A stretch of 62,876 bases of DNA, filler included, from Sphacelaria rigidula (taxonomy: Eukaryota): NCBI GenBank assembly GCA_964200075.2. It is 11 parts of 11 records of this genome, joined end to end, with 100 filler letters (N's around TTAATTAATTAA, not from the genome) between each part and the next. Parts side by side here need not be neighbours in the genome. Positions count along the whole stretch, not along the records: positions 28,629 to 34,253 come from CAXNAA020025761.1; 10 more parts are not named here. One strand, 5' to 3'. Of this stretch, positions 6,762 through 57,320 are shown in pieces; positions within the stretch are counted from its first letter, which is position 1, and every line of letters starts with the position of its first letter. Under the pieces are notes generated by a model that saw only the letters and a list, made by a program, of their open reading frames with translations, searched no databases and had not been told where the DNA came from. Both the position numbers and the translations under genes were made by a program.

Positions 6762-6992
6762 TTTTAGTACCCCACCTTCCTTCTGCGGTGCTTGCCTTTT
6801 TTTTATCGCGAGAGGGGTTTAGCGATCCCTTTCCCTCGTCGACCGTTAAGTCGAATTTTGTGTACCCAAGACATAGTCGCTCTCCACTGTTGGGCATGGT
6901 GTGAGAAAAACCCAGATCGCTCCGAGAATTGAACCCACGACACAACCGCCAGGAGGTTACAAGGTTATTAACTGAGGCACCGGGGCGACCGG
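6762..6992 (-). mobile_element. tRNA-derived SINE, 3'-truncated and diverged copy
   Basis: Homologous to 41341-41573. The minus strand begins CCGGTCGCCCCGGTGCCTCAG with degenerate A and B boxes. Confidence 0.75.
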
Positions 6993-11452: not shown

Positions 11453-11483
11453 GGCGGGGGGGGGGGGGGGGGGGGGCGGGGCG

Positions 11484-11531
<48 letters not shown>

Positions 11532-11630
11532 ACTCATTTGTTGCTTGCCTCAGTCGATTGATTGACCACGCATCCCTTTCGAGGCGGAGCACCGTTCCTA
11601 CTCCTAATAAAGACACCTCCAGCATTCCAA
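11453..11630 (-). mobile_element. 5'-truncated 3' end of the poly(C)-tailed LINE family
   Basis: Reverse complement GGAGTAGGAACGGTGCTCCGCCTCGAAAGGGATGCGTGGTCAAT...GGCAAGCAACAAATGAGTAC-(C)n aligns with 31690-31780. The G-rich run spans 11453-11530. Confidence 0.85.
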
Positions 11631-13390
11631 AGATTCATATCGCGGGGGAGGGAAGAGGGGGGGAGGGGGGGTGCCAATTTTTTACGCTTGGAGTTTAACC
11701 GCGGGTCGATGAAGGTAATTTGTAGTGCTGAGAGAGATGAGCCTACATATTTTCGAAAATGTCTTGATTGTTGCACATTAAGCCATCCTCTAGGGATCCA
11801 GCCGTGGTCATTACCCAGAAGATAAGACGTTTCTTCCCAAGGTGAACAAAACGGAAGTGCCTGCTGAGGACAACTCGACAATGGGAGCAGACAAAGAAAA
11901 AACATGACGTACGGGAAGGGTCGGAACAAACGGAGTAGAATGAGCAAGAACGAGAGGTTTGAAATATATATATATATATATTACTGTTGCGGTGTTTTTT
12001 TTCTCAAGTCACTTACTTCCTTGCAAATAGGTGTCATTTGGTGACAGTAGAGTTAACCGGCGTTGGGCTAAAATATGTTCGTGGTAGATATTACTTGATT
12101 TGAGGGTGTGAACAAGGAGAATCGGATATTTTTAGTGGCGCTGACATTCCCGTGTGCTCCTCGCGTGCGCAGAACGCTTTTTCGCTCAAATTGGTGTCAC
12201 AGGCACCGATTTGGGGTCTACCAAGGCTGCACTTTGCCTAGAATGCTCTATGTACCTCCCTCGTCCGACGGTTCTCGGTATGCCTTGGGTTGGCGTTAGG
12301 GTTAGGGGTAGCGATAGTTGTAGAGTGTGGGAACCATGAACATATCGTAGCCCAACGCCGGTCAACCTACCTCTGTTGTGACGCACGACAGCGTAGTATT
12401 TCATTCTTCCGTTTTTTGTGCTTAACCGCACCGCGGAATATCTCCCGCTTCCCTCGTAAGAGTTTCACGCAACCTGTCACTTTCGGCACCAACGACGTTC
12501 CGAGCGGTTTGCCCCCATTTCGCGCCCGTGACAGCCCTCCAGCACCTGCCGGTGACTTCCCGAACCGTTGACAAAACTACAGCCCCGGCGACCCCCGCAC
12601 CTTTTGCTTAGGCGCATGTTCCTTTTCTCTAAAGAGCGCAGACAGGTGTTGTTTTGCGAATTGCAGTATTTCCACGGACACCGGCGACCCCAGCGCCTGT
12701 CACGCACCAGTCACTACTCTTCACCAGTGACTTTCCGAGTCATGTGACCTCCCAATCCTCCGTTTTGGCCTGTTTCACCATCTGTCCTCCTCGCGGTTCA
12801 CCACACCCAAACAAATCGCATGTGACTTCCCGATCCTTCAATTTTCCGGTTCGCAGCCACTGCTTATCCATGTTACTGCTTGTCCCACACCTCACCACGG
12901 TCCCTCACGTCATCACATTCTCTCGCTCCTTCTCTATGACCGCTCATCGCTGCCCACTGACATCGCCTGTGGGAGTCCTGTTCGTGTTCCAGTCCGATGT
13001 CACTCCATATTTTCGACGACTTACGTTGCAGCTCTTCTCCTTAGGTTGGGAGATGAACGGGCAGGGGAGTCGTCGAAAAGACGGCTTGACATCGGGATGG
13101 AACACGGACAGGACTCCCATAGGCGATGGCTGTGGGCAGTGATGAATGGTCATAGAGCAGGAGCGAGAGAGTGTGATGAGTGAGGGAGGGTGGTGAGGTG
13201 TGAGACAAGCAGCAAAATGGAAAATCAGTTACGGCGGACCGGAGAGTTGGAGGATGGGGAAGTCACATGGGAATTTTTGGGGTGTGGTGAACAGAGAGGA
13301 AGACAGACGGCGAAACCGACAAACGGAAGATCGGAAAGTCACTGGTGAAGAGTAGGGACTGGTACGTGACAGGTGGCCGGAGAAATGCTG

Positions 13391-17178: not shown

Positions 17179-17286
17179 ATCCACAACAAGCTTGTTCGAA
17201 CAGCCGTTGCTGCGTTCAACGACGATCTGACTCGAAATTTCGAGTAACAAATGGCCCCAAATACCCCCCCTATCGTAGGATGACTC
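17179..17286. mobile_element. Sola-like element end interrupting the gag-like ORF
   Basis: Same sequence as 7-117. It supplies the spurious 'ESSYDRGG...' tail shared by ORFs 1..276 and 17131..17868. Confidence 0.75.
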
Positions 17287-17868
17287 TTGCACAAGCACGG
17301 TTTGTTTGAATTCCGCCGGTGCCAGACCCTCCACCATCGCTTTTGTGATCACCGCAGCGGGCCCTGGACGAAAGTTCCCATCGGAGGGACGATAAACCAT
17401 CTCGACGTTGGGATTTTCCGAAAAACATGTCTCCAACTTTCCCATGATTGGCTCCACCCTCTTACGCATGGTCTTCCCCTTGTGGTTCATGGCGACAGCC
17501 TTCGCCACGGCCGCGGACGCCTGGGGTAGCTCTACCTCAGCGCCCGCCGCAGGGCCTGCATGGTTCTTGATCGCTGCAGCCAATTGCAGCGGCGTTATTG
17601 TGTTCTTCTCATGGAATCTTCTCGCAAAAACGCGTTGGAGGGGGGTAGGCACGAGTTGCGCCATGGATACCAGCTGATGCCTTACCGCACCCCCCGGGTT
17701 CGCCCGCTCCACCCGCTTCTTGTACTCCACATATTCCGTATTAAACGAACGAGAACCGCACTCAGAATGAAAATTCCCGTAACTGGGAGGCCGCAACTCT
17801 TCTCTCAGAACAAGTGGGGTTACGGTCGTCTCCGCTGGCTCTTCGGTCGGTACTTTTGTAGTCGACAT
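17287..17868 (-). pseudogene. Intronless ORF, probably the N-terminus of an LTR-retrotransposon Gag, truncated by a DNA transposon
   Basis: 194 open codons from ATG (MSTTKVPTEE...FNTEYVEYKKRVERAN...). It lies downstream of a tentative LTR (18204-18555, TGCCGC...ACAGCA on minus, AATAAA near 18268). No diagnostic motif is present, so the call is inference. Confidence 0.45.
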
Positions 17869-18699
17869 TTCCGAGCGGACCTAATCGAAGGCTTCTGAAC
17901 CTTCTCGAACTCCACAATTCACACCTGCCTTCGTCGACGCACCACACAGCCGTGGGGCCCTATAAACACCCGCTGCACGCAGCTCCAGCACGTCTCCAGC
18001 CTGGATCAATCATGGGCCAGCCGCCTTTGCAGCTACATCAGCTTGAACCCTCCTCACGCGTCCGTGAAGTAATATGCCCGAAGCTATCCAGACTCCTCTT
18101 TACTGAAAAAATTCCAGCAGACACTAACGATAGCACTACTAGCACGACTAGCACTAATACCGATATTGTGACGCCAGCAGGTTGCTAGTACTACAGCATC
18201 TAATGCTGTTGAGGGACGCCCCAGTTCCACTGGCCTCAGGTTTCAGTTGTTAGCCTTCACAACACCTTTTATTATACTGGAGTACCACACAGGCACATGC
18301 TCCATAAAACACATCAGGGTATCACCCCTGTGTCCATGTCATCATCCATATCATCACCACAGATCCCAAGTCATCATCCATATCATCACTATATACTCAA
18401 CGTGGCGGCGTGGTTTCGTCACAGGCCACAAGCGCAACCCGCTCCGCCATAGCTCGAGTATGACTCGAGTCTCCGCCTCACGAGAAAGAGTGCTATGTCC
18501 CGACTGGGCCATGGGGAGACCGACGGAGACTTTCAATACTGTCAATGGTGCGGCATAAGGAGTTCGATATTACTGTAGTTACGAGAGTAACGCAATGGGT
18601 GGCGGAGGGTGACGGCATTAAAAAACGACGAGGAGTCTATACAGAAACGTTTACGCTTTCCATCGCAGCGTCAGCCTCAGCAAAGAGACATAATTCTAC

Positions 18700-19692: not shown

Positions 19693-22600
19693 ATGGCAGA
19701 ACAGGGTGGCAGGCCTGCAACAGAAATCGGTGAGCAGGGTGTTATGGAGCAGTTGCGGGAAGTAAGTAGTCAGATGGTTTCCATGGCTCAGCTCATGCGT
19801 GATATGCAGCTAAGCCAAGCTACATTACAGAGTAACATGGACAATATGAGGGCAGAAAGAGAGGCCGGGGGCGCAGAAAACAACGGCGTCCTCGATAGTG
19901 AAGGTTCCCATAGTCAACAGGGGGAATTCAACATAAATAGAACAGCGGAGCGACGTGGTGCTGGAGTTCGAAGAGAGCGACGGTACATCGGGAGCCAAGC
20001 TGTTCCAGAGGACGGAGCGCGCGACGCAATGGACAACGAGCCCACCAATGACGAAGCTAGGGGATTTGTCCCCGCACGTGAGTCAATCCAAATAAACGAT
20101 ACAAGTGGAAATGTGTCAGGGGTTCACGTTTTTCGACAGAACTTCCCAAAATTTTCAGGGAAGAGCGCTGATTATGCTCGGTACAGGCATGAACTGGTCA
20201 ACTTCGCAAGGGGCGAAGGGATTGGCTGGGTGTTCACCATGGCCGGCGATAGCTCTTACGATGTAGATGTCGGTAATCCTGAAATAGAAATGGGGTATCT
20301 GGAGAGTAGACATGGGAAGGACACAGTGGCGGCCAACGTGAGGGCTGGACGAATGTTTGTAGCGAGTTTAGAAGGAAGGAGGGAGTATGATATTTTGCTT
20401 ATAATCCACTCACCTACTGCGGTTTGGAGAAATCTCGAGGATGTCTTTCGCCCCTAAGCAAATGGGGCGAGAACCGCTTTGTTGGAAAAGTTCGATGGAG
20501 TCAAGATTGGTGTTCGTGATGATCCAGAGCAGAAGCTTCTCGAGATGGAGGAGCTTGCACGTAACCTGAATTCAAACGAGGAGCATGAACGACTAAGCGA
20601 AAACAATATTCTCTTGAAATTCCTCAACGCGTTGCCCTCCGAGTATCACATCCAGAAGCAACTTCTGGAGGATCAAGAGGGACCGCTGACACGAGAGTTT
20701 ATGTTGACTTCGATCCGAAAGCGCTTCGAATCAACATCTTTAAAGCAGGAACTTGCCCGGGGAAAGAAATCATCCCCGGGCGACCAGGCTCTCCTTGCCG
20801 GGGGTGGGACCGGAAAACCGAGCGGTGCACACCGCAAAGGGGAACCGGGAAAATCCCAGGGCACTGGTCAGAAAAATGGCGGGAGCCAGAGCTCAAGTAG
20901 CTCTGGGTCGGCATCGTCGGACGGCAGACCGACGACTGGGCAGCTGCTCCGCTGCCACGTTTGCAACGAGGACACGACACATCGGACCAGGAACTGCCCG
21001 AAGAGATACTGCGGGAGGTGCGGTCAGCAGGGGCACACGTTCTGGGACTGTCCGAGATCGACAGCGAAGAAAGAAGACGTGGTAATGGCGATGGTAATGG
21101 CGATGGGCGCGGCCGACGACAGCGACAGCTTCTCCGTCTGATTGGTGGCGGATGGGGAGGCTTTCACCTCTCTCGACAGCACCATCACGACACGGACGAG
21201 TATGCATTGAGTGTTGAGCGGGGGAGTGATAGTCAGCAGGGCGAGGGCGAACCGTGGGTATTTGACACGGGGGCTACCCAGCATTTCTCCGACGATTCTC
21301 ATGGGATGACGGAGTACAGAGAGTTCAAGGGTAGAGTAGTACGGTGCGCGGGAGGCGATACTTTCCCGATCGTAAGCAGAGGAAATTTGTCCCTTGCCTT
21401 TAGATCTGACGGACAGGATGTAATCCCAAAATTAGTGGAGATGTTGACCATGTACCTGGTGTCCGTCATCACCTCTTGTCACTCACGAGGGTCCAACACA
21501 TGGGACACACCTACACTGGTTTTCGTAGAGGTTTCAGGGTAGATCTCAATTCAGGCAATACACTGATAATACCCGGACAACCACGTCAACTCAAAATGTA
21601 CGCCCGCCACCTCGATCAAAGTGGTAGTGACAAGTGTGCTTCGGCATATGCTGTTATTGCCTTGGGGGCTCCGCCTAGCCCCCAGACCGCTGACATCAAC
21701 GAATTCCACTGTTCCCACGCTCACGTCCACGAGAATTTACTGAGGAAGACGGCGAAGCAGCAGGGAAAGCAGCTGGCTGGGGAGCTGCAGCCCTGCCGCG
21801 GCTGCTCAGAGGCGAAGGGACTGCGGGCACCGATTCCAAGATCGACACACACGAGAGCAGCTAAGTCAGCGTCTAGGGTGTTTGTAGGTCTTTCCGGGCC
21901 GAAACCAGTCAAGTCTTACGGGGGAAAGTCGTACACGATGATAGCCCGAGATGATCACTCACGGCACACAAAGCTGTATTTCCTCCGGAAGAAGGATGAG
22001 GCAGAGAGACTCTTCGCGAAATACATTGCATGGGTCTCTCCGAGAAAAAATGAGATAGTCCGTAGCGATGACGAGGGTGAATTCTCGGAGGGTGCATTTG
22101 GTGAACTGTGCGGCAGGGAAAAGATCAAGCAGGAGAAGACAACTGCCGACTCACCCCAGATCAATGGTGTTGCAGAGCGAGCGTTAGGTATCATCGAAAC
22201 AGCAGGCCTTGCGGCCAGAACCCAAGCGTCTGAGCTGTACCCAGATGAGCGCATCCCAAATGGTGCCAGCCTGTGGGCTAAACAGGCAAACTGGGCGTGT
22301 CACGCGATGAACTGTACCGCTACCTCGGCTAACCCGCACCACAAATCACCGCGTGAGATATGGTATGGATCGCCACCAGAAGGTGATCTCATTCCGTTCT
22401 TGAAGCCTGGTTTTTGTAGGAGGAAGCGGAAAAAGAAATTACAACCGAAGGCCGAAAAATGCTGGTACTTGAGCCCAGCCCCAGGCTACCCACGTGACGC
22501 GATGCGAGTTTTAACTGTACGAGGAATTATCTCCGTGACAAGACATGTAAGATGGGCACGTACGTCCGCTGCCCCCCCCCCCGCACACTACAGCAAGCGA

Positions 22601-22803
22601 TCCAGACGCCGGGCGAGCTGAAAGATTCCAGCGTCGATCAAGGCCAGGGTGTGAGTGAAGACAGGACGGGAAGCCCGACAGTGGACACTTTGTCCAGCGG
22701 TTCCTCAAGCGCGCCGTCCTCCCCGCCGAGTTCCGTTGGTGGGAGGAGCGGAGCAGCACCGCAGATCCCCGTCAGTAGTGGAGGGGGCGAAGTGCCTTCA
22801 CCG
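19693..22803 (+). mobile_element. Ty1/copia LTR retrotransposon gag-protease-integrase, inactivated, truncated before RT
   Basis: Gag ...KFLNALPSEY..., zinc knuckles CHVCNEDTTHRTRNC and CGRCGQQGHTFWDC, protease WVFDTGATQH, integrase HCSHAH...CRGC, VGLSGP (D lost), RSDDEGEF, NGVAER. Copia order PR-IN. Stop at 20455 plus frameshifts. Confidence 0.93.
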
Positions 22804-28628: not shown

Positions 28629-31600
28629 AAGTTAAACCTCAATTCTCACAATTTGTTGTTATTGGGCAATACGGGGGAAATAAGACGAAGACGAATGGGG
28701 TGGAATTGCCGGAGTTTCTTGAGCATAACGAGATGAAGACGCTGAACAATAGAGCACAAAAGCCAGAGGCGCAATGGACATGGACTAGAAAATACAAAGA
28801 CGAGAGAGAACGCTCCGCTTTTGACCATATAGTGGTAGAGCATGGGAATGGTGAAGAAATGGAAGTGCATGTGTGCGCGGAGGACGTAAAAACTACAGAT
28901 CATTGCCTCACATGGACAGAAAGCCAACAGTCGAGAGCTGAAAGAAATAGGCGGGGTAGGAAGTTGTACAAATGGAGAGACGATGAACTAGAAATGAAAA
29001 AAAACACAGCAGGAGTTTGGAGAAAAGATGATCCGAAGTGAAGCGAAACTTTCCAAGCTGTTGCACAGCGTAGGTATAGTTCATACTTGAATGGAAAGAA
29101 ATCGGGCAGGAGCGAAGAATATAGAAGGATGGGGGCAGTTGGTCAAGAACACAGCAAGTAAAGTCATAGGGAAGAAACTGATCGTATGCAACAGAGCAGT
29201 GAACTGGTGGGATGGCAAAATAAATGAGGCTATAAGGGTAAGAAGAGGTGCCCGCGAAAGGTACACAAAGAGTAAAACTACGGCAGGATGGGAGGAATAT
29301 ACTAAAGCTCAAAAGGAAGTCAAAAGGACGGCATGTAGGAGAAGAAGAAGGGAGTATGGGAAGATGTAGTGAAAAAAGCAATTAAAGATTTCGATGGCGG
29401 GATGAAAGAAATGTGGGGAGGTATTAAAAGGATCAAGGGAAAACAGGCAGGAACAATGGGCAAGGGGATAGTCACACCACGAGCACACAGCGGTACGAAG
29501 GTTGAGAGTTAAAAGGGGAAGAGAGAAGTGCTGGTCGAGCTCGACCGTAAACGAGGAACACCAAACCATAACACGGAATTCGCCAAGCAATTCGAGAAAG
29601 AGATCAACGAGTGGGCAGTGCCAAATGTAGATGCTTCAAAACGGGTCGATAGTGGCTCGAAAGAATGGCAAAAAGAGTTTATCAGGGATGAAGTGAAGGA
29701 TTGTGTAGCTAACTTCAACAACAAAAAAGGCAGCAGAGGCAAACGAAATAGTGAATGAATGTCTACAATGCGGGGGAGAGGGAATGATTACCATGATGAT
29801 TATGCTGTGAAACTGAATCTGGGACAGCGAGTACACACCCAAGAGGTAGAGAGAAGGAGTGGTTGTCAGTCATTTGAAAAATAAGACACGAAGCTTACGC
29901 ACTAAATTATAAAGAGATAACGCTACTGAGCACGGTAGGGAAACCATTCTGTAAGAACCTGAGTGCTAGGGTAAGAACGATGCCAGAAACAAAAAAAGAA
30001 CTCAGCGAGGAACAAGCAGGTCTCAGACCGAACCGTATTTGCGTAGACCATGTGTACACATTTGGTAAGATCATTCAAGGTAGAAAAAAAAACGGGCTGA
30101 CAACGTACTGTTTCTTTCTGGACGTGCAAAAGGCTTATGACACAGTATGGAGAAATGAGTTGTGGAAAACGTTGTGGGAAACCGGGATCAGAGGAAAGAT
30201 GTGGAGAATGGTGAAGAAGATGACAGAAAGTGCCAAAAGTGTCATGATGTTAGACGGGGGAATATCGAAATATTTTGATATTTTGTAAGAAGTTGAACAA
30301 GGATGTAGGTTACCACCCACTTTATTAGAGGTATTTATCAATGACCTGATATTAGCAATAGAACCAAGAAAGCAAGGAGTCAAGGTGGGTGAAGATATGG
30401 TATCAGGATTGATGTTCGCGGATGATCTTGGGGGGATTTCAGGAAAAGCAAAAGGATGACAGAAACAGATAGACAAGGCGCTAGAATACACTAAGAAATG
30501 GAAAATGACAGCGAACGTTGACAAATGCACGGGACTCGTCTGTAACGAAGATGAGGGAACTTGAGTAGACTTCGAATGGAAGTGGGGAGAAGAGGAATTG
30601 CCGATCGTAGATCAGTATACATACCTTGGCGTAGAGATCTCAAAACCCTGTTCTTGAGATGCACACATAAACAAAACAATAAAACGGGTAAGGAACACAT
30701 AGGCAGAATGAACGTGATCCTCAGAGACCCGCACCTAGACCCTAGGATAAGGAAATGTATCCTTATGAACATGAACGTACCGAAGCTGGAATATGCAGGA
30801 GAACTATGGGAGGGGAACATGAAGTGGGTGAAGAAGTTGGAGACAGTACAGATGGTAGCAGCTAAAAAATACTTGGATGCTCGAAAACGACGAATAATAA
30901 TACTCGTACAGCATTGAGAGCAGAGTTGGCAATGTACCCACTTAAAACAAAGAGAAACATGAGAGAAGTGAGGTGGTAATAAAGCGTCAAGAACGTGCAG
31001 AGTAAGGTTTTGCCAGCCATAGTTGATAGGGCTATATGGAAGAAAGCAACGAAAGGGCAGCCTAGAGTAAGTTGGGGTAAGGAAGTCGAGAAAGTATGGA
31101 AAGAGGTAAGAGGAAATCAAGCCAAAACACTGCCTATAGGGGAAGGTGAGGGGTACAAGACAAGAGCACGAGACATGATAAAAATAAGGGGAAAAGGAGC
31201 ACTCAGACGCAAAGTAGATGAGGAAGAGCTCGTGGAGACATACGGGGGGTTGAGGGTGGGGATAGGGATGGAAACGTATCTACATGGCCCAATGGACGCG
31301 GCGAAAACATCGAAGCTGTGACTTCGGGTGGGGGACCTGGACCTGTCAGAAAGAAGAAAGGGATATACCAGTAGCCGTGTGGAGGAGGAAGCAGATGCAC
31401 AGGATTGCCCCTGTGGCAAAGCAATGGAGAGCAGCACTCTCATACCGTGGCAGATTGTGAACTATACGAGGAGGAAAGGGGCGTGCTTGAGGGAGAAATG
31501 CAGGACGTGAACGAGAGTGGCATGAAATCATTTGGTGCATTAGACAGTAGCGACAAAACGACGGCTATACTAGGAGATCGATAGTGGCCACAGACGGCGA

Positions 31601-31789
31601 AACAGGACGGGGATAAGGTACGGAAAAGATTTTGTGTAGTGCATGGAAAAAACATAATGAGCATCTAAGTGTTGTGGGTGTCTCTACCAGGAGTAGGAAC
31701 GATGCTCCGTTTCGAAAGGGATGCGTGGCCAATGGCCAAACGACTAAGGCAAGCCACGACTGAGTACGCCCCCCCCCCCCTTCCCCCCC
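28629..31789 (+). mobile_element. Degraded non-LTR retrotransposon (LINE) ORF2: AP endonuclease C-terminus, RT, C-terminal Cys motif, 3' UTR and poly(C) tail
   Basis: WTW...SAFDHIVV...TTDHCL (APE), EEQAGLRPNR...FFLDVQKAYDTVWR, EQGCRLPPTL...FINDL, GLMFADDL (RT), CPCGKAMES. Many stops and frameshifts. Ends TGAGTACG-(C)12TT(C)7. Confidence 0.93.
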
Positions 31790-32127
31790 TCACCTCTAGA
31801 CTCTTAGCTTGGCGTCGGGTGGAAACGGCGCTGTAAAACAAGCCATGAGAACCTAGACATAAAATGTTTGGACTTGCATCGTAAATTTAGTAGAGGCCGC
31901 CACTAGACGAAATAAATCCCCGGATCAACAGACACAGTAGGCATGCAAAAACCACAAGAACCGATTTTGTTTCCCCCAATGAAAACACAAAATTGATATG
32001 GATATGATATATCAATAGCTGACCCTTTTTTCTGATTTTATTCCCTCCTTTTCCTTATTTTATTGTTTTCCCTTTCTTCCATTTCTTCTCTCCCTTTCTC
32101 TCTTCTTTCTTCAAGTTTGATCTCCCC

Positions 32128-32755
32128 CGCCATGACACAGCCCAAACAGGCATAGACATGGTCATAAAAAAAAACTAAATATTCTCGTCCTTTTCTTAAA
32201 CCGCCGAAGCACAGCCCGGACATAGACATGAAATAAAGAAGTAAATCATCATTTTTCTTCGATCTACCATAACACAGCCCAGGCATAGACATGGGGTAAC
32301 GAAGCTCATTATCCTATTCTTTAGCCCATCATCACGCAGCCTGGACATAGACATGAAATGAATAGCTAATCATCCTTTTTCTTTCACCTAACATAACACA
32401 GCCCAGGCAGAGACATGAAATGAAGCAGCTAACTCTCCTTTTTCTTTAACCTACCATGACACAGCCCAGACATAGACATGGAATAACGAAGATAACCATC
32501 AATTTTCTTTAACGAACCATAACACAGCTCGGACATAGACATGAAACAACAAAGCTAATCATCCCTCTTTTTTAACCTACCATAATAGAGCCCAGACATA
32601 TACATAGAATGACGAAGCTAATCTTATTTTTTCTTCGGCCTACCATAACACAACCCGGACATGGAAATGAAATAAGAGGCTAACCATCCTTGTTTTGAAC
32701 CTACCAAAACACAGCCCGGACATGGACATGGTATAACGAAGCTAACCATCTTTGT
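32128..32755. repeat. Minisatellite, ~10 diverged units of ~62 bp
   Basis: Consensus approx. CCATAACACAGCCCAGACATAGACATGAAATAACGAAGCTAATCATCCTTTTTCTTTAACCTA. Confidence 0.92.
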
Positions 32756-34353
32756 TGCAGAAATCACAACACAGTCCGAATGTAGGCATGAAATAGCGAG
32801 AACAAACAGTTATGTTTTTCCCTATCAAAAAAGGAAAACAACCGAAATTCTTCCTTGATGTCATAACAAACAGAAGACAAAAATAAAACCAACACCTAGA
32901 CATGTAAGTAATAGTGTGAAGGTTGACCACCTTGCATGCGAATCGAGAATACCAAATACATAACAAATACGCATAGGGTAGGGTCATCACCCCCGTCATG
33001 TGAAATTCGTGTGGAGGTTGGGGTCTCATGGAAAGATACTCGTGAAACCTTCTTTGTTTCCAGTGAGCGGTGAAAATCTGGTCCGATGTTTTCCTGAAAT
33101 TTCCGATATTGGGTGCAAAAGGTGCCTAATGAAGGAAAGGGGTGGTTAACGCATGACATAAACGTCAAGACCTACAACACTCACGATGAAACAAACACCT
33201 TACCAATGACAGACCACATGACCAACGAGAAGGAGCACCAAGCGGTACGTAGACTTCTTTGTGATGTGATCAGACAAGTAGTGCGAAATTACTTTTGTCA
33301 TTTTCTGATATGCACAGACAAGATATGGCTGGAGGATGAGAAACGTAGATTTGAGGCGACTATTTACACATGCACAGTGCAGCTTCTGCAGAAACTAGTT
33401 ACATTTGGAAAGCAAGTACGTATTGATCGCTACCGGGTGTTGAATGATGTGGATTTGTAGGCATACAGTCATCGTTTTCGGCTGAGTAACGACCAATAGC
33501 TGCTGTTGAAGGATCGAGGTCTGCGTGTACGTTTACATAGCTTGGAGTAAGTCATGACGTGTTGGATTCCGCGTGATGACTTGAGTATTTTTTAGGTCGG
33601 GAACAGTTGTGTCTAGGCGCTCCACCTGGCGTCACTCAGTTCCTCACCGCTGATTTGGGAGTCAGCATTACGGTAGAGACTAATTGAACACGTCTTCGAG
33701 GGTGTAACACATCTGTTGTGTATCCAGCCGCCATCTGCTTGGTGGCTGAGTCCTCAAAAACGAGCTATCCAGGGGGTGAAAGCTTGATTTCGAGTGTAAC
33801 ATACGAAGTAGTACAGCTTGGTTTGTTTCGGTTTTACATTGTGTCGAGGGAGATAGATTGTGAGCGCACCCAAGATGAGCAACTCACTGAAGCAATCAGT
33901 CAAGGCCGATCCTGGGTAAATATATCGCTCCACTGTTCCTTTTCCGGTTGTGTGACACCTTTGCATATTGCATGTTGAGATTGTGAAGGATAGAAGCTGA
34001 TACAATTTGTGAGTGGATCCTCGTCAAAGTTCTCGGCAGCGAAGGTCTACTCAGAAGCATCAGTGGAGTAGCGACCTATGGTGGACCGTACACGGAGTGG
34101 GAAGAAGTGACGTACGGGACATCCCGATGTGAGTAAGACCTTGTGTTATGCAAGCCACCCTTCAGCCTTACACGGTGAAAATAACCTCCCTGGAGAAAGG
34201 TAACCAGTACAGCAGCGGGGCAAGAAGATAGAAGATACGATCGTGGGACGCCTNNNNNNNNNNNNNNNNNNNNNNNNNNNNNNNNNNNNNNNNNNNNTTA
34301 ATTAATTAANNNNNNNNNNNNNNNNNNNNNNNNNNNNNNNNNNNNNNNNNNNN

Positions 34354-34419
34354 GGCTTTGTAGGGATGCGAGGTCAATGGTCTGATGACTATGGCAGGCA
34401 TGATCATGAGTACACCCCC
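34354..34419 (+). mobile_element. 3'-end fragment of poly(C)-tailed LINE-related family
   Basis: AGGGATGCGAGGTCAATGGTCTGATGACTATGGCAGGCATGATCATGAGTACACCCCC aligns with 31717-31775. Confidence 0.7.
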
Positions 34420-34634: not shown

Positions 34635-37600
34635 GTGTCATGTGAAACTCAACGTGGTATGCACACAAAAAGGGGACACGTCATTACCGATCCTGAAGGA
34701 GGAGGCGGTATGCGTGTATGGAGCGGTTGGGCGAAAGCTCAATTATTCAAGACCGGAAGGTCAGGTATATCTAGCGCTCGCTCCTAAAACTCTCGACCGA
34801 AAAGACAAAAAAAATAAAAAACAACAACATACTACACAAAAAACGAAAGGTGTGTACAACGAAAAAAAAAATGAAGGAAGACATAACTTGTGGCAACTGT
34901 TCCAGTAGGTGGAATGGTTGTGAATGTACGGTGCGGAGGACGGAAGTTCAAGGTTCCAGACTCGGGGTCAGGAATGGAACGGTCGTCATTTATACTCTGC
35001 CAGATGAACCCAGAATTAACCAAGAAAATTACCCATTGAACACAAAAAAATCGAAGGCAAAACACGAGGCGAAAAGCGAAGAAAAGAAGAGAAGGAAAAC
35101 AAGAAAAAACAAAGACAAAAACAAATTAAAACAGATGACGCAAAGGCAAAGAAAACCGAATCACAAAACCAGGTTCAAAGCAACAAAGAACAAAAAACAA
35201 CACAAAAAAAATAAAAAATACAAAAAAAATAAAAAATACAGAATTCAAAGAACAACATCAAGCACTACAAGTACGGCGCTGATCAGTACGAAACAAAATG
35301 AAGGGGGGGGGGGAATACATGGTTTCCCAATGGTGCTACGGTGCAAGACAAGCAACTCGAACGCGGCACATTACGCAAGGTGAATGGGGAAGCAGACTGG
35401 GATGCGGCATCATGAGTCATCTGCATCCCAAGCGGTGTCCGTGTTCCGTAGAACGGCTGTTTCGAGTTCCCTTGGTCGTGTCGTTGGAGGCACCAGGATC
35501 CCCTCCGAGCGGTCGGCTCCTCGGTGTAATAGGCATCATCCAAGCGAATCTTGAGGGGGCTCGGGTCATCGAGGAAACGGATAAAGTAGGAGTGGTCAGA
35601 CGCAGGATCGACCAAGTTAATTTTACCCAACCAGCACAGTGAGTCCAAAATTCTACGAAACATACGCCTCTTTCGGCAATCGTTTTCCGTGAAAACACTG
35701 CATGTATTGTGAACGCGAAAGAAGACTATAGCCTGTCACAACAAACCGCGCTGAGTGTTCACGTGTCAGTTCCCGAGCGGCAGCTCCCTTGCGCATCGGT
35801 CGAAACCTTTTATTCAACGGGCGGTGTTGGACGGTATCTCCTACCCTGTACAGCAATATTTCCCGACGAAAATGACGCAAATCAACTTCACGCTCCCATG
35901 TAACACGCATGATACCCTTCCAATGTGTTTGATACATAACCGCTGTCTTACCTCCACGACCGCGAACCAGTTGATGGCCCGAAATCCTATATACCTCAAT
36001 GCGTTCCAGGGGTGCGTCCGCATCCTTGACCATCATATGATACGGCGGAGTTTTGATCGCATACTTGGTCAACACATACTGGCTAAGCCCTAGCGGCAGT
36101 TGTTTGGGCATTTCGGAGGAGTCATGAGGGGGGATACACGGTTTGCATCGTAGCATCAATATGCGATTTTTCGGTTTCAAACCAAGTTTATCCGTGGGAA
36201 AATCTAAATACAAGATTTTCGCTCCTACCGGACTCTTGTCGGGTGCGGTAGCGCTTGGACCAACAGCTAAGATTTCCCAAGGACCAGTCCGATTCAGGGA
36301 TAGTTTCGTCTTCAACACTTTGTTCAAAGATGATGATTTCGAGCTAGCCCCTTGATTGATGGTCTTCACATCGTTACACACCCATGCCCATTGGCCTACC
36401 TTCCACACCGAGCGGTTATGTACCACATCATCCAACATCGAGTTCGCCCTCGCCACCTTAGCCAAATTGATTTGGTTCTGTTCTCGTACCACTTCATATG
36501 CAGAATGAAGGCGATTGCTAATCGACAAACGATGCTCTACAACATCACGATCTAGGCTCTGATGTCCACCTGTATTTTTGCGTTCGAATACCCTTAAAGG
36601 TAACCTAGGCATGCGTCTAATATGAATTTCATTCGGCGACAATCCCGTAGCGGCATTGACTGAAATGTTGTAGTTCATCTGGACGAGGGGCAGGTGCAGG
36701 TCCTAGTCCATATGTTTCTCATTTGCTACAGCAGCAAGCATCTGTGCCATCGTATGGTTCACGCGTTCCGTTCCACCATTGGTGAAAGGGTGATATGAAC
36801 TAATAAAAATGCGATGGGCACCCAAATTGACGGCGGCTGAAAGTTTGCCTGAAAAATGCGGGCCCTTGTCAGACAGTAAGCGTTTGGGCACATCCCATAG
36901 TGGAATGTACTTGTAGATAAGAATGTTCGCGGTGCCTTCCGCGGTATAACTACTGAGGTGGGCGGCGTGCATCACCGCATGTCGACTAAATCTATCCGTA
37001 AACAAAAGAATATACTTATTTCCACTATCCGTCAGGGGCAAAGGACCAAAATAGTCTCACGAAACTACTTCACCACGCCCGTTTGGGGGTGGCATGGAAA
37101 CAATCGGCCAACTGTTTGACGAGAATGTTTTCGCGCCTCACACAAAAGACAACGCCTCACCCACCAACAACACTGATCCATACAAATCCACCAACAAAAA
37201 CGTTCCAACATCTGGGAGATCCTCATGGCGCCTAAATGAGTCGATGCCTGTGGATGGTATTCGTGTAGAACCCATGGGCGCAGGAGCATCGGGACGTAGA
37301 TGCCGATGGGCTCATCACCTAGCAAGCGGGCATGTCGACTTGTAGGCTTCCCCCTGGGGAGGGCTGCTGTGGGCCGGCGAACTAACAGAACTATACCATC
37401 ATCATCCGTATGTAGCATACCTTTCCTTGAAAGTTCAGTATCTTCATCCTGTGTAGGCGCTTTGAGATTCTCGACTGGCAATAGGAATTCGGTTTCTGAG
37501 AATGGACATGGACAACCTTTAGATAGATGATGGATAGCTGATTTACAAGCAGGTTCTGCCTGTTGTTCCCGGGCCCAATCGGCGTGGGAGAAGAGAGTCA

Positions 37601-39978
37601 AACGTTCCTTGAATACACCATCTGTTGAAGCGTCTACTTCATGTTGGGTCGGTTCGGGGCGGGGTTGGCACGAAGCGGTGATTTCGGAATCAAGGGTGAG
37701 CCTACCAGTTGGTGCACTCTCAGACGGAACGTTAACGTCTACTCCTGCGTCGATTAGCGTGGAGGGTGTTGTGGTGGTGTTTGCAATATCATCACCACTG
37801 GAGGGGGGCACAGCCGTGGTTTCGGCTATGGTTAGCAGGGGCGGCACGGTCGGGGTTGATTTCCTGGGGGCCTTGCGTCGCGGAGGTTGCGGAGGCGCAA
37901 GGAAACTGCCGGGGACCGGGGTGGGGGCATGGGGGGGAAGGTCAAGACCTGATACGGCTAATTTGGTGGCCGTTTCGGCGGTCCGCCGTCCACGAGTCCT
38001 ACTCGAAATCAAATATCGAACTTGAACTGGTAAGACGGAGTCAGCAAAGGACGGTTCTACACCTGCTGTGAAAACCATACGCTGGTCAGTTGTACGAAAA
38101 TGATCATAGCCAACAGTATTCGTAGACAGTCCATGCCAAACTGAGTACAACGATTGAGGTTGCAAGCTGCCTAGAACTGATGCGTGGGCTGTGGTCGGCA
38201 GCCCACCCATGCCTAAAACCGGCGTTTCTCTCAGTGAAAGTGGTGTGTAGAGACCTCTATGTTCATTCCTGCTTATGAAATATACAATGTCTTCGGTGGG
38301 ATCGGTGATACGTCCCATGGCGGATTCATCGATACGTTGAGTTGGTGTGGGCAAGCGTGACAGGAACTCGGCGTTTGCATTCTGGGGACCTGTGCGGTAC
38401 TTCAGTTGAAAGTTGTAAGACGACAGGATTTCGAACCAGCGTTGGACCCTAGAGTTGTGTTCCGCCATTTTGGCAAGGCTTTCCAAAGACTTGTGATCGG
38501 TATAAATAAAAAACGGGATGTCATACAAATACTGACGCAGACGTCGCACGCCCCAATCAACTGCGCCGCCGTCTTGTTCCATAACAGACCAATTCTGTTC
38601 ATTCGGAAAAGTGGTGCGACTCAGATAGACAATGGGACGAACAGTAGCATCGACTTGCTCTTGTTTTAATGTGCAGCCAAACTCAATTTTGGAAGAATCT
38701 GTGTGAAGCCGGAAAGGGCGGGAGCCCTGGCCGCGGCCGACCAGTCGGGGAAGACGAGAATCGGCGGGCGCTAAAGGGTGTCGAGGAGGCGGCGGACGGT
38801 TTTTTCCATTTCCAATGTGAACACAAATTTCACCCCTTTTTGAGGAGGGTGGTGAGGGGTTTTGCCTTTTGGACAAGGTTCGGCAAGCATTGTCTATAGT
38901 AGCTTAGACCTCCCAACAAGGAACGCCGTTGAGAAATGTCCCGTGGCATGGGCATATAGGAGAGTGCGGCGACCTTGTCGAGGTTTGGGCTACGACCTTC
39001 GGGAGTGATGCAATGACCCAAGAACTCAATCTTCGTGGCGCCAATGCGGGATTTGGAGGGTGCGAGTTTCAAGTTGTGTTATTCAAACCGATTGAAGAAT
39101 GATGCCAACTGTTCGACGTGTTCGGCCGGTGTGGAGTCGTGGCACACCGCATCATCAAGGTACATATGACATTTCGGCAATCCATCAGTTACATGGAACA
39201 TTACACGTTGAAACGCACCTGGAACTCCGGCGACACCTTGTGGTGTAACCAACCACTCGTACAAACCTGATGGCGTGCAAAACGCCGTCAGTTCGATGGA
39301 ATTTGGATCCATCACGAGCTGGTGGTAGCCGGACTGCATGTCAAAGTTCGAAAAAACTTTACCCCCGCCAAGAGTCAATAATTTCATCAATCCGTGGAAG
39401 TGCCAGCCGGGCGATTTTGGTGACAGCGTTCAATCGTTGATAATTGACCGTCAGTCTGATTTTGCCATTCTTCTTACGGGCGACTACTAAAGGCGAGGCC
39501 CACGGAGACATCGAGTGCCGAATCAAACCGGCAGATAAGTAACCATCGAGAATTACCTGGATCTTATCCGCTAAAAGGGGGTTCGTACGGTACGGACGTA
39601 TAGCGATAGGCGGAGTGCCATCAGCAATCTTGATCTTAAACGGTGTCGTGGTACATCGACCTAACTGCAAGGGTGCAGTAGAAAGCCGTTCAGAGTATCT
39701 AATCAAGATGGATCTCAATCTATCGATTACAGTGGGTGTCCAACCATCGCCAGATAGATCAAAAACAATATGCCGTAAGTGAGGGGGAATGTCATGCCAC
39801 AACTTTTGAAAACTGGCGCGTTGTTCTGGAGAAAATCTATCCAGTAATGGAGTTGGGGGTTGAGGGTCAGGCGCATCCGGTGGATTTGTCACCACCGTGG
39901 GGTCAGACATGTGTAGCGGAGGGGGGCTCGTGGATTTCGGGGGGCTGGTCGGCGAGTTGTTGTTCGCCGGGGGGCACA
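34635..39978 (-). mobile_element. Ty3/gypsy LTR retrotransposon pol (RT-RNase H-integrase-chromodomain-like) plus 3' UTR, inactivated copy A
   Basis: SPWASPLVV...RLTVNYQRLN, GYHQL...TAFCTPSGLYEW...YLDD (RT), FRLHTDSS...IYTDHKSL (RNase H), H-H-C-C finger, TDRFSR...SDKGPHF...NGGTERVN (integrase). Gypsy order. Multiple frameshifts and stops. Confidence 0.95.
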
Positions 39979-41204
39979 NNNNNNNNNNNNNNNNNNNNNN
40001 NNNNNNNNNNNNNNNNNNNNNNTTAATTAATTAANNNNNNNNNNNNNNNNNNNNNNNNNNNNNNNNNNNNNNNNNNNNGTGGTGTTTACTGTTTTGTGGT
40101 GGGGGGGGGGGGGGGGGGGGGGGGGGGACTTTCGTAGAAAGTATCGACGGCGGAACATAGCGTGTTGGAAAACCCGAAACCTCTGGCCTGATCACGAGTT
40201 CTGTACTGCTGCGTAGCTTGTTATTTTGACAACAGCAAGAAAAAATAAGAAGGTATCGCCGTTCGGTTAATTTTGAACGTATGAAAAGCTCAGGATAAGA
40301 CCAACTTGTATGGAAGCCAATCCCGAATCGGGCGGGACCCGAATCTGTGCCAAGTCGGGGGGACCCAGATTCATGAAACTCAGATGCGTGTGTACCCCTG
40401 TATGACTTCACAGATTTGTTGAAGTTGTTCTGTACACGAGCGGTCATTTTCTGGGCGGGTGTGGTATCACAGAGAAGTCTAAGAACAGGCAGGCAGGGAA
40501 TCATCCCTCAAGAGCAGCGTCGTATCGTGGTACCCTCGGGTATGATGCAGTGCAGTACACTGAATAATCGCACAGTACACGATAATGCCGTGTGGTAATA
40601 CATGATGGTACAGTTTGTATTGCGAGAACAGTGCACAGTGTGCGGCAAGAGTTGACGAGTCCAGTGTCACTCATCACCCTGCAACAACCGCGACAGCGGA
40701 GTGTAGGATAGTGCAGTACCGTTCGTTATGATTACACGTACAGCAGCACAGTGCAGCATAAAAAATTGCCATCATCGCAGGGTACGGCGTCAACACTTCT
40801 TATCCGCTTGTCAAACCCCGTGCGGAGCTGCTTCAGCAGCCGGCGGTCGCAGGCACTGCCTGTGCTGTCACTAGACTGTCTGCTGCTGCTGTTGTTGCAA
40901 AAAAACCAAACGCCTGTTGCCCCATCACTGTACGTCAACATACGTACGTCAGTTGCTACAGATTCGGGGGACCTCGATTTCTCACGGATATGAGCTCAAC
41001 ATTGTGTCAAACCGTTCTCAAATCGTGACAAACGAATTTGAGCTTTCCCGATTTGTGCCAAATTGGGGTCTATACTATGCGTTTCCGGATCTGAGGTCCC
41101 CTGCACTGCGTACAGATCCGTTTTGTCGACCACCATACAAGTCGGTCTAAGAACTGCCAGGTGACTTATCCGTACAGTACCACCATTTTTTTGTATCTTA
41201 TGTG

Positions 41205-41573
41205 GCATGTGTTGTCGTGTGTCGTCGTTCCATGTATTGTGGACGCCGGTCTACACCTTTTGATATATATGGGCGCACCAACCGGGGTTACATAAGAGGA
41301 AGGCCAACACAGGACTTTTTTTTCTCTCTTGTTTGTTTTTTAGTACTCCGCCTTCCTTCTGCGGTGCTTGCCCTTTTTTTTGTCATCACGAGAGGGGTCC
41401 AGCAGTCCCTTTTCCTTGTCGAGAATTAAGTCGAATTTCTGTACCCACGATATGGTCGCGCTCAACTTTTGGCCATTGTGTGAGATGAAATCCCAGATCG
41501 CTCCGAGATTCGAACCCACGACCCAAGCGTCAGAAAGTTTCGAGGTTACCGACTGAGCCACCGGGGCGACCGG
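41205..41573 (-). mobile_element. tRNA-derived SINE, near full length
   Basis: Minus strand 5' CCGGTCGCCCCGG-TGGCTCAGTCGG (A box)...GGTTCGAATCTC (B box), followed by a tRNA-unrelated body shared with 6762-6992. The 3' boundary is approximate. Confidence 0.8.
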
Positions 41574-42960: not shown

Positions 42961-43047
42961 GGGGGGGAAGGGGGGGGGTACTACTGACCACGCATTGCCG
43001 TAGTGATGTGACCATTGACCTCGCATCCATGCCGGGTTTTCGCCGGA
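42961..43047 (-). mobile_element. 3'-end fragment of poly(C)-tailed LINE-related family
   Basis: Reverse complement GGATGCGAGGTCAATGGTCACATCACTACGGCAATGCGTGGTCAGTAGTA-(C)9TT(C)7. Confidence 0.7.
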
Positions 43048-43394
43048 CCACGCTCGCAATGAATCACCAAGCGCAAAACACCGTGATGTGTTCGGCGAGT
43101 TGCATCAAAAATGAGGATTCATGGGCTTGTATGCGCGTGAGTTACACGCGTTGCGAAAGCGGTGTGAAATGATGTGTAACATCCACGCAGCATTCAAAAT
43201 GAAATTTCCCGCCTCCAGCGACGCTCAAAAGTGGCTCTTCAAGGTGGCAAGAAGTGCCTCAAAACCTCCCCTTCCCCCTCCCCGTCCCCCTCACTCGTAG
43301 AATCACTCTCGCTACGATGCACACCATTCATGAGTTCCCCGCGCCGCCCGAACCCGTCCCTGTATGTGCCGTTTTTGTTTTCCCATTCTCTCTT

Positions 43395-44194: not shown

Positions 44195-45703
44195 CAGGGT
44201 TTAAAGTCGAAGCAAAAAAACTTCGATTTCACATCGCGATTAATTGAAGATTCCAGATATCGCGAAATCGCGATACTCGCGATCTCCGATGTTCGATTTC
44301 GGAGGATCCTGGGGGCAAAAAAGGCGCCAAAGTCGAGTCTCTTTCACTGAGATGGTAGTTCTCTCGGCGAGGGATTCGTTACTCACCTCTAATTTGGCCA
44401 TTTCGGGGTATTACTTATCGATATTTGCCTCCTTTCACTTGAATTTAGTATAGACCTGCGCCGAGATGAAAAATTCATTCCCGGTTGAAAAAGTGAAATA
44501 CCAGAAAACTATTCACTATCACTGGTTTGTTTTACCTTGATCAAATGAGGTCGACACAGTTGCATGCTGGGAGCGTGTCACATGTCATCATTTCACAGTC
44601 AGTATAGTCGGCTGCTTTTGGTAAGGTGTCACACTCAACCTCGCCGGTTGAGACATGTGTGGAAGCTGAGACCCTGCTGTTCGCCTTTCGTCCTTCAACC
44701 AAAAACGGATGCCTGAGGAAGTGGAAATAACTCGAAGTGCTCATCGTCAACTGCCACCAACCTCTGGATGAACTACATACGCCCACGTACGAGAAAAGAC
44801 AGCCCATAGGACACAAGGTAGAGCAAAGCGCAAAGAGCACCGACCACACGAAGCCCCCAACGGAGTAGCGAAGCCGGTGCTTGCTCGGTTCTGCCGCAGT
44901 GTGTTGATACACTTCGCGCAACTACTCGAAAAGCTGCTGTTTGCCCGACAAAAGCCAAAATCTATGTTGCTCAGTGAAAGCTGCGACCCCGAGGCAATCA
45001 ACGAGCGCAACCGTATCACTTCCGCGTCTCCCCCATCTTCCACCCTACACCGTGACATCTGTACAAGGAGAAAATATCAGCGTGTCCACCATCTCCGTTC
45101 CCAGCCTGTTGCGCAGCTTGGTCACGGTATGGCCGGCAATGCTGAACACCCTCTCGGACCCGGCAGATGAGGCTGGCTGGCACTACCAGATAGATACACG
45201 CCGTCTTGAATAGCATGAGGTAGGTCGCCTTGCGACTGAACCACCAATCCAACACCTCCTGGGATGAAGCGCGCCCTGGCAGCCCCTCTCCATCCTCGTC
45301 CCTGCAGAGCTCATATTCCACCATATCTTCATATTTATTTTGACGGCTCGCCGGGTCCCTGACACGATTATTTTTGGACGTCTTCGACACGCCAGCCTCG
45401 TGCTTTTTGGGTATTCTTACGAGGACGAGGTTGCTCTCGGTGTGGAGCCGCTGGCGATTGTCTAAGAGAGCTGCCGCCGCTGGCGATGCTTTTTGTTCGG
45501 CCTCTCCCGCCGATTCCCCCATCGGCTTCGCTCCGATCGGCGTCGGCCGCGAGCTCTTGCGTCACCCTGGATTCCACCCAGTTCGAAATACGGCAATTTT
45601 CACGATCGACCGGAGCGCCTTCTGCTCGACGTATCCGATTTGGTCTCCGCGCTCGTCAAGATCGGGTGTGGCCCACTCCGTCTCTTTGGTGCGGGGGGGG
45701 TGC
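44195..45703 (-). mobile_element. hAT DNA transposon 3' part: transposase C-terminal dimerisation domain (pseudogene, ~45060-45703) and terminus
   Basis: VLDWW...TYLMLFKTACIYLVVPA/SSAGSERVFSIAGHTVTKLRNRL (hAT dimerisation motif, one frameshift). CAGGGTTTAAAG terminus at 44195 with subterminal TCGA/TCGCGA repeats. Confidence 0.85.
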
Positions 45704-45803: not shown

Positions 45804-46054
45804 GGATGCGAGGTCAATGGTCTGATGAATATAGCACGCATGATCATGAGTACACCCCCCCCTGCCCTCCCTCGCTCACCCTTAATGGTCTGATGACTAC
45901 GGCATACAAGATCATGAGTACACCCCTCCCCTTCCCTCCCCAAGCCTGTTTCCGCAAAAACCCGGTGTGCCCCATCCCGGCTTTGTAGGGATGTGAGGTC
46001 GACGGTCATATGACTTCGACATGCAAAATCATGAGTAAACCCTCCCCCGCCCCC
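45804..46054 (+). mobile_element. Three head-to-tail 3'-end fragments of the poly(C)-tailed LINE-related family
   Basis: Units end ATCATGAGTA(C/A)ACCC... at ~45853, ~45921 and ~46038, each followed by a C-rich tract. Confidence 0.75.
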
Positions 46055-46461
46055 TTCGTAGCACACTCGAACTCAATTTTACCGAAGCGCACAGCCAGCA
46101 TTGCTGGAGGAGAAGCTCATCTATCTACGAGCAAGACAGTTGAAATCCACGATAGATCCCCGACGATAGAGTTATGCATCGGTGTCATGAGGGCACCATC
46201 GCTGTCGAGTTAGTCAAGTTTCGAAAAAGTGACGCTGAGGAATATAGTAACAAAAAACGGGTGTTACGGTGTGCAACTCGTCCAACCATGATCCAGGCAA
46301 GAGAACGCAAAGTGCCTGCATTTAACCTGATACTTACTTGGTAAAGGATACGGGTGGTAGTACCAAATCGCCTCCCTCCGATAATGCACAGGCTCGGGAT
46401 TTGTGCCGTAGTCGGCATTGAATATCCACGAAATCAATAGATATGAATGTCTACAGCACAA

Positions 46462-56100: not shown

Positions 56101-57152
56101 CCCCCTGGGGAGGGCTGCTGTGGGCCGGCGAACTAACAGAACTATACCATCATCATCCGTATGTAGCATACCTTTCCTTGAAAGTTCAGTAACTTCATCC
56201 TGGGTGGGTGCTTTGAGATTCCCGACTGGCAAAAGGGATTCAGTTTCTGAGAATGGACATGGACAACCTTTCGATAGATAACGGAGAGCTGGTTTACAAG
56301 CAGGTCCTGCCTGTTGTTCCCGGGCCCCATCGGCGTGGGAGAAGAGATTCAAACGTTCCTTGAATACACCATCTGTTGAAGCGTCTACTTCGTGTTGGGT
56401 TGGTTCGGAGCGGGGTTGGCACAAAGCGGTAATTTCGGAATCAAGGGTGAGCCTACCAGTTGGTGCACTCTCAGACGGAACGTTAACATCTACTCCTGCG
56501 TCGATTAGCGTGGAGGGTGTTGTGGTGGTGTTTGCAATATCATCACCACTGAGGGGGGGCACAGCCGTGGTTTCGGCTATGGTTGGCAGGGGCGGCACGG
56601 TCGGGGTCGATTTCCTGGGGGCCTTGCGTCGCGGAGGTTGCGGGGGCGCAAGGAAACTATCGGGGACCGGGGTGGGGGCAGGGGGGGGGAAGGTCAGGAC
56701 CGGATACGGCTAATTTGGTGACCGTTTCGGCGGTCCGCCGTCCACGAGTCCTACTCGAAATCAAATCTTTAACTTGAACTGGTAAGACGGAGGAAGCAAA
56801 GGACGGTTCTACACCTGCTGCGAAAACCATGCGTTGGTCAGTTGCAGGAAAATAATCATAGCCAACAGTATTCGTAGACAGCCCATTCCAAACTGGGTGC
56901 AACGGTTGAGGTTGCAAGCTGCCTAGAACTGATGCGTGGGCTGTGGTCGTCAGCCCACCCATGCCTAAAGACGGCGTTTCTCTCAGTGAAAGTGGTGTGT
57001 AGAGACCCTTATGTCCATTCCTGCCTATGAAATATACAATGTCTTCGGTGGGATCGGTGATACGTCCCATGGCGGATTCATCGATAGGTTGAGCTGGTGT
57101 GGGCAAGCGTGACAGGAAGTCGGCGTTTGCATTCTGGGGACCTGTGCGGTAC
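53170..57152 (-). mobile_element. Ty3/gypsy copy B of the same family as 34635-39978 (RNase H end, spacer, integrase, chromodomain-like and PWWP-like tail, 3' UTR)
   Basis: Colinear with copy A throughout. WDYFGPLP...TDRFS...SDNGPHF...NGGTERVNHT, and the 423-aa ORF 54145..55416. The 3' UTR may extend to ~51557 (weak PPT GGGAGAGG then TGT). Confidence 0.94.
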
Positions 57153-57252: not shown

Positions 57253-57320
57253 TTCCACCGTTCAGCCCCCTAGAAAAAAAACCCCCCCCCCCCCCCCCCC
57301 CCTTATCGTAAGCATGACTC
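57253..57320. mobile_element. Sola-like element end in helicase intron
   Basis: Ends (C)n-TTATCGTAAGCATGACTC, a variant of the TIR at 117 and 17286. Confidence 0.55.

Follow-up and report, generated by a model that had tools for sequence, protein, structure and literature searches.

A C-tailed LINE family, probably of the RTE-X kind, and its short non-autonomous partners in contigs of Sphacelaria rigidula

The Sphacelaria rigidula DNA analyzed here (hereafter, the window; 62,876 nt) comprises 11 contigs of about 5,625 nt each, joined through N44-TTAATTAATTAA-N44 spacers. The contigs are rich in transposable elements (TEs), with Copia-like, Gypsy-like, and hAT-like ORFs, and C/G homopolymers of at least 10 nt outnumber those of A/T in the window as a whole (16 vs. 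5; G+C content about 48%). The sixth contig contains a decayed autonomous LINE (28661..31757, plus strand) that retains the C-terminal part of an APE endonuclease, a reverse transcriptase (RT), and a C-terminal CCHC-like domain; its 5' end was removed by the contig start at 28629. Compared to a full-length relative (protein P0003, 1360 aa), the window LINE matched residues 334–1359 in nine pieces with shifting frames (tblastn), and is therefore a dead copy. An RVT_1 match was found (E-value 5e-11), APE motifs are readable in the frame translation, and the nearest named relatives of the RT fragment come from Ectocarpus (47–76% identity).

An intact version of this coding region is present in L183, a public contig of 5,259 nt (the whole contig, extending locus L164), which encodes a 1382-aa ORF with an Exo_endo_phos domain (residues 193–437) followed by RVT_1 (residues 763–1012). 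An N-terminal APE-type endonuclease followed by RT, as found in the L183 ORF and in the P0003 alignment, identifies a non-LTR element (LINE), and the nearest solved structures are those of L1 ORF2p and R2 (E-values 7e-21 to 6e-10). A CRE or R2-type LINE, in which RT precedes a C-terminal REL endonuclease, was considered and ruled out by this domain order.

The 3' end of the window LINE (31718–31768) reads ...GGGATGCGTGGCCAATGGCCAAACGACTAAGGCAAGCCACGACTGAGTACG (also quoted as ...GGATGCGTGGCCAATGGCC...GACTGAGTACG, with 31768 as its last base) and includes the remnant of a TGA stop codon at 31761–31763. Alignment of copies delimits within it a conserved 3' core, GGATGCGTGG..GAGTAC(G) (31719..31768, plus strand), which encodes the last ORF residues in intact relatives. 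The core is followed by a C-rich tail, C12 TT C7 T CACCTC (31769..31796, plus strand), in agreement with the original prediction, made from the sequence alone, that this LINE ends in a run of C rather than A.

Repeat searches, blastn, and alignment found the last ~50 nt a further seven times in the window, including the homologous 3' ends that had been predicted on four other contigs. One of these is a 5'-truncated LINE 3' end of 113 nt (11531..11643, minus strand; 84% identity to 31677–31789; tblastn match to P0003 residues 1320–1360), whose tail (C46 GCGCCCCG C21 GCC; 11453..11530, minus strand) reaches the contig end. Immediately 5' of this copy, on its target or target-site-duplication (TSD) side, lies another C-rich tract (C7 T C7 TCTT CCC T C5; 11644..11671, minus strand). 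Five copies are of a non-coding kind (hereafter, N-type) that has only the last ~50 nt in common with the LINE and lacks an ORF. They include a 3' end that is cut by the contig start and carries the short tail ACCCCC (34354..34419, plus strand; 3' end at 34354–34413), a minus-strand copy at 42961..43058 (3' end at 42979–43058; tail C9 TT C7 at 42961–42978), and three head-to-tail 3' ends at 45804..46054 (plus strand; 45804–45853, 45882–45921, and 45942–46038). Every member of this array has its own C-rich tract, and the later members begin inside the preceding tail. The last bases of the window were likewise correctly suspected to be another 3' end: a core represented by its last 7 nt (GAGTACG, 62870–62876) stands at the contig end together with its tail, C11 T C6 T C6 T C6 (62838..62876, minus strand). 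Five of the contig ends fall within such 3'-end repeats or tails. Three copies, 113, 97, and 40 nt long, stop at GTA(C/A), showing the constant 3' end and variable 5' truncation of a LINE.

Relatives of the core are also present in public data. Scanning metagenomes with a 20-nt degenerate core gave 120 loci, three of which are true relatives (L016, L050, and L106) and the rest chance matches. A scan of prokaryote-genome contigs with a 19-nt core returned 61 loci with a single true relative (L164), located on a contig that was binned with a bacterial MAG; a search of the genome behind L164 found no other copy. Another candidate, L172, was rejected as a bacterial gene that encodes GCVVNG by chance, and two scans of viral contigs, one for the core and one for the motif TCGTAGGATGACTC described below, returned nothing.

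In all 12 copies (eight from the window and four from public data: L016, L050, L106, and L164/L183), GTA(C/A) plus 0–1 nt leads straight into C-rich sequence, which spans between 6 and at least 78 nt, and in none of them does an A run follow the core. This bears out the prediction of AGTA(C/A) followed by C-rich sequence without an A tail, and corresponds to the (C)n 3' terminus curated for RTE-X elements of Ectocarpus (see below). The same junction was found in four public sequencing runs, where 35–69 contigs per run diverge from the window copy at 31754 and, in all four runs, agree on AACAAATGAGTAC(G/C) and then at least 16 C as their consensus. Over the core, the summed contig depth exceeds that of the unique flank by several orders of magnitude, a figure that is not a copy number. 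The original prediction had named shared sequence beyond the C-run as the outcome that would make the run internal. Instead, the flanks past the tract are unrelated in all eight copies that have at least 60 nt of flank (28 pairwise local alignments, scores 6–12; shuffled controls, mean 8, maximum 12), and the C-run is therefore terminal. The flank of L183, which was outside this pairwise test, is G-rich and unrelated by eye.

The ~90 nt right after the tail of the window LINE (31799–31892) are also high-copy in the four runs, with a summed depth of ~3x10^5, then 4x10^4, compared to 40–120 over the next 280 nt; blastn found no second copy of this segment in the window.

The conserved 3' signal of the original prediction is real as a ~50-nt core, and this core is largely the coding sequence of the last codons (...GCVVNGQMTKASNK / ...SRNGAPSRKGCVVNGQMTKASNK). 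In L016, L050, and L106, the ORF is open up to a TGA located 4 nt ahead of the tail (...AAA TGA GTAC (G) Cn), so that the 3' signal is the end of the ORF and a 3' UTR is essentially absent. Translations of these three loci finish in ...GCVVNGQ(M/T)TKASNK* and the L183 ORF terminates alike; the C-terminus ...ASNK is common to P0002, P0003, P0007, and P0020, and the same C-terminus occurs in an Ectocarpus gene model with 71% identity to P0003 over 455 aa. More distant relatives retain ...GCVVNG... close to their ends.

The core probably also has a role at the RNA level, because the ORF-less N-type elements keep just these ~50 nt and because invariant columns concentrate in the last three 30-nt bins (25–29 of 30 columns vs. 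12–26 upstream, a modest effect based on four intact copies only). Two hairpins had been predicted ahead of the core, and both are present as inverted repeats, but they did not stand as RNA structure: RNAalifold kept neither of them, none of its 11 predicted pairs in the 3' core has a compensatory change, and single-sequence folds of the core (n = 5; z from -1.13 to +2.37) gave no support for structure.

At the other end of the element, all three visible 5' junctions (the 113-nt copy at 11531–11643 and the array members of 40 and 97 nt) start right after a C-rich tract, which in the 45804–46054 array is the tail of the preceding copy. TSD limits are indefinable within such low-complexity C tracts. 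The 11531–11643 copy is the sole case in which both tracts are measurable, with a 3' run of at least 78 nt vs. a 5' tract of 28 nt.

Past the tail of the window LINE, another LINE copy with the same orientation is represented by its 5' region (32130..34252, plus strand), which runs off the contig end. Tandem Repeats Finder identified an array of 63-nt monomers at 32210–32750, followed by 5' UTR-like sequence. Two segments match the region upstream of the L183 ORF (32991–33259, 74% identity; 33972–34252, 83% identity; blastn), and the monomers match as well: positions 1–817 of L183 (reverse strand) contain 63-nt monomers and ~700 nt upstream of the intact ORF. A G-rich stretch of L183 that had been taken for a TSD belongs to this shared 5' region and was dropped. 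Judged from these matches, the full-length element seems to have a monomeric 5' region, possibly promoter-like, and the sixth contig seems to contain two LINE copies head to tail, the second beginning a few hundred bases past the first tail.

A C-tailed family with these properties is already on record in a curated Ectocarpus TE library (PMC12477816, Genome Biol 2025). There, RTEX-1_Ec32 is annotated as 'single EN-RT ORF; (C)n 3'' with a 'C-rich' TSD and RTEX-2_Ec32 as '(C)n termini/TSD', whereas other Ectocarpus LINEs end in (CAA)n (RTE-1/2) or (CA)n (CRE-1). The library also lists the non-autonomous RTEX-N1_Ec32 (607 bp; '60 bp 3' end 83% RTEX-1/RTEX-2') and RTEX-N2_Ec32 (188 bp), which share the 60–100-bp 3' end, are flanked by TSDs that are C-rich, and 'can be present in tandem'; the RTE-X group as a whole accounts for 16,418 copies and 3.4% of the Ectocarpus genome (PMC12477816). 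As far as these annotations go, the window family resembles RTEX-1/2 in its single EN-RT ORF, (C)n 3' end, length of >5 kb, and brown-algal host, and its N-type copies (five, three of them in tandem) resemble RTEX-N1/N2 as short non-autonomous partners with a common 3' end of ~60 bp. The Ectocarpus elements are annotated with C-rich TSDs; in the window family, C-rich tracts abut all three visible 5' junctions, and the limits of a TSD are indefinable within them. The window family differs in coming from another assembly and probably another species or subfamily (RT 47–76% identical to Ectocarpus models), and it was matched to the published entries by description, not DNA. The provisional assignment to RTE-X thus rests on features that match the published notes and on the resemblance of the proteins to Ectocarpus models. 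Of the possible novelty that the original prediction had allowed for, the C tail itself cannot be claimed, because the C-tailed RTEX family of Ectocarpus was described in 2025 (PMC12477816), and the window family is a further example. The main text of PMC12477816 contains no discussion of the C tail or its mechanism, and we found no mention in that paper of a stop codon 4 nt from the tail or, in its text and Supplementary file 1, of a 5' region with 63-nt monomers in LINEs. A full-text literature search returned no paper on poly-C tails of LINEs, and a search for RTE-X gave no text on tails. The window contributes confirmation in another assembly and three anatomical details: a stop codon placed 4 nt ahead of the tail, a 5' region with 63-nt monomers, and tandem tail-in-tail insertions.

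LINE/SINE pairs with a common 3' end include eel UnaL2/UnaSINE1 and RTE/Bov-B with their SINEs, and the I factor has a (TAA)n tail. The likeness of the window family to these elements, and to RTE-1/2 and CRE-1 of Ectocarpus, would lie in an RT that recognises a specific 3' end borrowed by non-autonomous elements and in a tail copied from the RNA as a simple repeat instead of poly(A); the very short 3' UTR is shared with RTE-type elements. The differences are that the repeat unit here is a single C and that no stem-loop is supported. With regard to the target, the R1-clade elements Waldo, Mino, Kibi, and Koshi insert into a simple repeat that matches their own tail, and human L1 combines a poly(A) tail with a T-rich nick site. 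By analogy, complementarity between tail and target would cause copies to land in repeats or older tails and to be flanked by TSDs of the repeat. These elements belong to other clades, and in the window family a homopolymeric C/G target, for which the specificity is putative, would replace microsatellites or A/T.

Taken together, these features very probably belong to a brown-algal non-LTR family of the type labelled RTE-X in the Ectocarpus library, a family that is C-tailed, is accompanied by short non-autonomous dependants, and would use its C tail for priming at a G tract. A full-length element consists of a 5' region that seems to contain 63-nt monomers, one ORF of ~1380 aa (APE endonuclease, RT, and a C-terminal Cys/His motif), TGA-GTAC, and a (C)n tail. 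Its transcript would carry the C-run, and the element protein would recognise the last ~50–95 nt of its own RNA, exactly the part that the N-type elements appear to copy. The endonuclease is predicted to nick the G strand of a C/G tract, after which the exposed 3' G-run could anneal to the C tail of the RNA and prime its reverse transcription (i.e., target-primed reverse transcription, TPRT). On this model, TSDs would be C-rich, 5' truncation would be extensive, and new copies would enter older tails. Arrays of copies placed head to tail and numerous long C/G runs across the genome would result, with C-to-T decay converting pure C-runs into C/T-rich tracts. The original prediction had offered a C tail and a preference of the endonuclease for C/G tracts as alternatives, and both fit the data, given the terminal C-run (eight of eight flanks, 12 of 12 copies), the three 5' junctions, and the '(C)n 3'' and 'C-rich' TSD entries seen for Ectocarpus.

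The most serious alternative is an element without a tail of its own, which would end at GAGTAC(G) and insert precisely into existing C/G tracts, so that the C-run is split target DNA. In favor of this explanation, which we consider improbable, C-rich tracts flank both sides in all three copies with a visible 5' junction, and long C/G runs are common even at a distance from recognisable elements: of the 31 window C-runs of at least 7 nt, 18 are not next to a recognised 3' end, and 13 border such an end or the accompanying 5' tract. A tail brought by the RNA is nonetheless favored over a tract that pre-existed at the target, because in all 12 copies the run begins no more than one base after GTAC and because the 3' run usually far exceeds the 5' tract in length and purity, as in the 11531–11643 copy. 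Moreover, known LINEs with a target-matching tail carry the repeat in their RNA. The tail-borne reading is further favored because (C)n forms part of the consensus 3' end in the Ectocarpus curation (PMC12477816).

One observation is not explained by a simple C-tail model. A motif of 14–16 nt, TCGTAGGATGACTC (TCGTAG(G/A)AT(G/C)ACTC), follows C-runs after 1–4 nt at five window sites (102–117, 17271–17286, 43291–43310, 46056–46070, and 57303–57320) and in L050, where it lies right after an intact LINE tail; in two of the 12 copies (L050 and 46056–46070), it is thus shared sequence beyond the tail. For the TCGTAR part, ~0.9 sites would be expected by chance. The sequences before the C-run and after the motif vary between sites. 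At 17271–17286, the motif abuts a gag-like ORF on the opposite strand (17287–17880, minus strand) of a brown-algal retroelement family with 43 relatives, including Sphacelaria and Scytosiphon proteins and some with a CCHC zinc knuckle. This ORF is cut off by the insertion that carries the motif and loses homology to its family exactly there, so the motif belongs to the inserted DNA.

These sites could mean that the C-run is internal to a bipartite end consisting of the core, (C)n, and TCGTAGGATGACTC as a terminal motif, which most copies would lack since priming began inside the C-run. The position of the motif in L050, the small number of sites expected by chance, and its place in inserted rather than target DNA at 17271–17286 all speak for such an end, but we regard it as very unlikely, given that the motif follows just two of the 12 LINE or N-type copies, that the other four motif sites follow C-runs preceded by unrelated sequence, and that a repeat upstream of the first site (7–91) is not significantly similar to the LINE 3' end (z = 1.6), a homology that was therefore dropped. 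The motif can equally well be taken for the terminus of another element with a C/G-run that drew LINE insertions; it may be such a terminus or an optional terminal module. That the C/G runs arose as artefacts of sequencing or assembly, with poly-G reads of two-colour chemistry extending contig ends, is hardly credible: several of the longest runs do lie at contig ends (11453–11530, 40101–40127, 57282–57302, and 62838–62869), but those at 31769–31796, 42961–42978, and 45854–46054 are inside contigs, which refutes this reading for the internal copies, and the contigs of the four runs (same GAGTAC and C-run consensus), the four independent public contigs, and the Ectocarpus curation (PMC12477816) all record the same feature.

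Homopolymeric C tails are unusual among LINEs and provide a natural test of tail-target pairing vs. endonuclease specificity in directing TPRT. In brown algae, the repeats with the highest abundance are those of the C-tailed family and its dependants, and they probably give rise to many of the long C/G tracts at which short-read assemblies break, as seen at several of the present contig ends. More speculatively, C-tailed LINEs might be self-seeding, each insertion providing a C/G landing pad that gives rise to head-to-tail arrays and to an excess of long C/G runs in brown-algal genomes. In addition, TCGTAGGATGACTC might be a second, hitherto undescribed module at the end of these elements, or of a partner element, and act in priming or in synthesis of the second strand; we put this forward as a tentative idea that is more likely to fail than to hold.

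A 111-nt repeat with 91% identity opens two contigs (7–117 and 17179–17286), ends in ...CAAGTGGCCCAAAATA-(C)7-10-TATCGTAGGATGACTC, and may represent the end of a second C-run-bearing family. Several contigs start or finish in long C/G homopolymers (e.g., 40101–40127 and 57282–57302), which suggests that such runs break the assembly of these contigs; the assembly may also have cut or inflated long runs at contig ends, such as the one of at least 78 nt at 11453–11530.

Two Gypsy-like elements with RNase H and integrase (34662–38400 and 53381–57152, minus strand) share 88% identity across 3.8 kb on different contigs, and a Copia-like pol (20901–22618, plus strand) and a hAT dimerisation domain (45019–45561, minus strand) were also identified. 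A 238-nt repeat (6761–6992 and 41337–41573; 82% identity) was considered as a tRNA-derived SINE, an identity that is unsupported, with ARAGORN predicting no tRNA gene in the window. Beside the LINE tail that ends the last contig, an ORF with a UvrD/REP helicase N-terminal motif (61905–62495, minus strand; E-value 9e-7) may be a fragment of a Helitron-type or host helicase.
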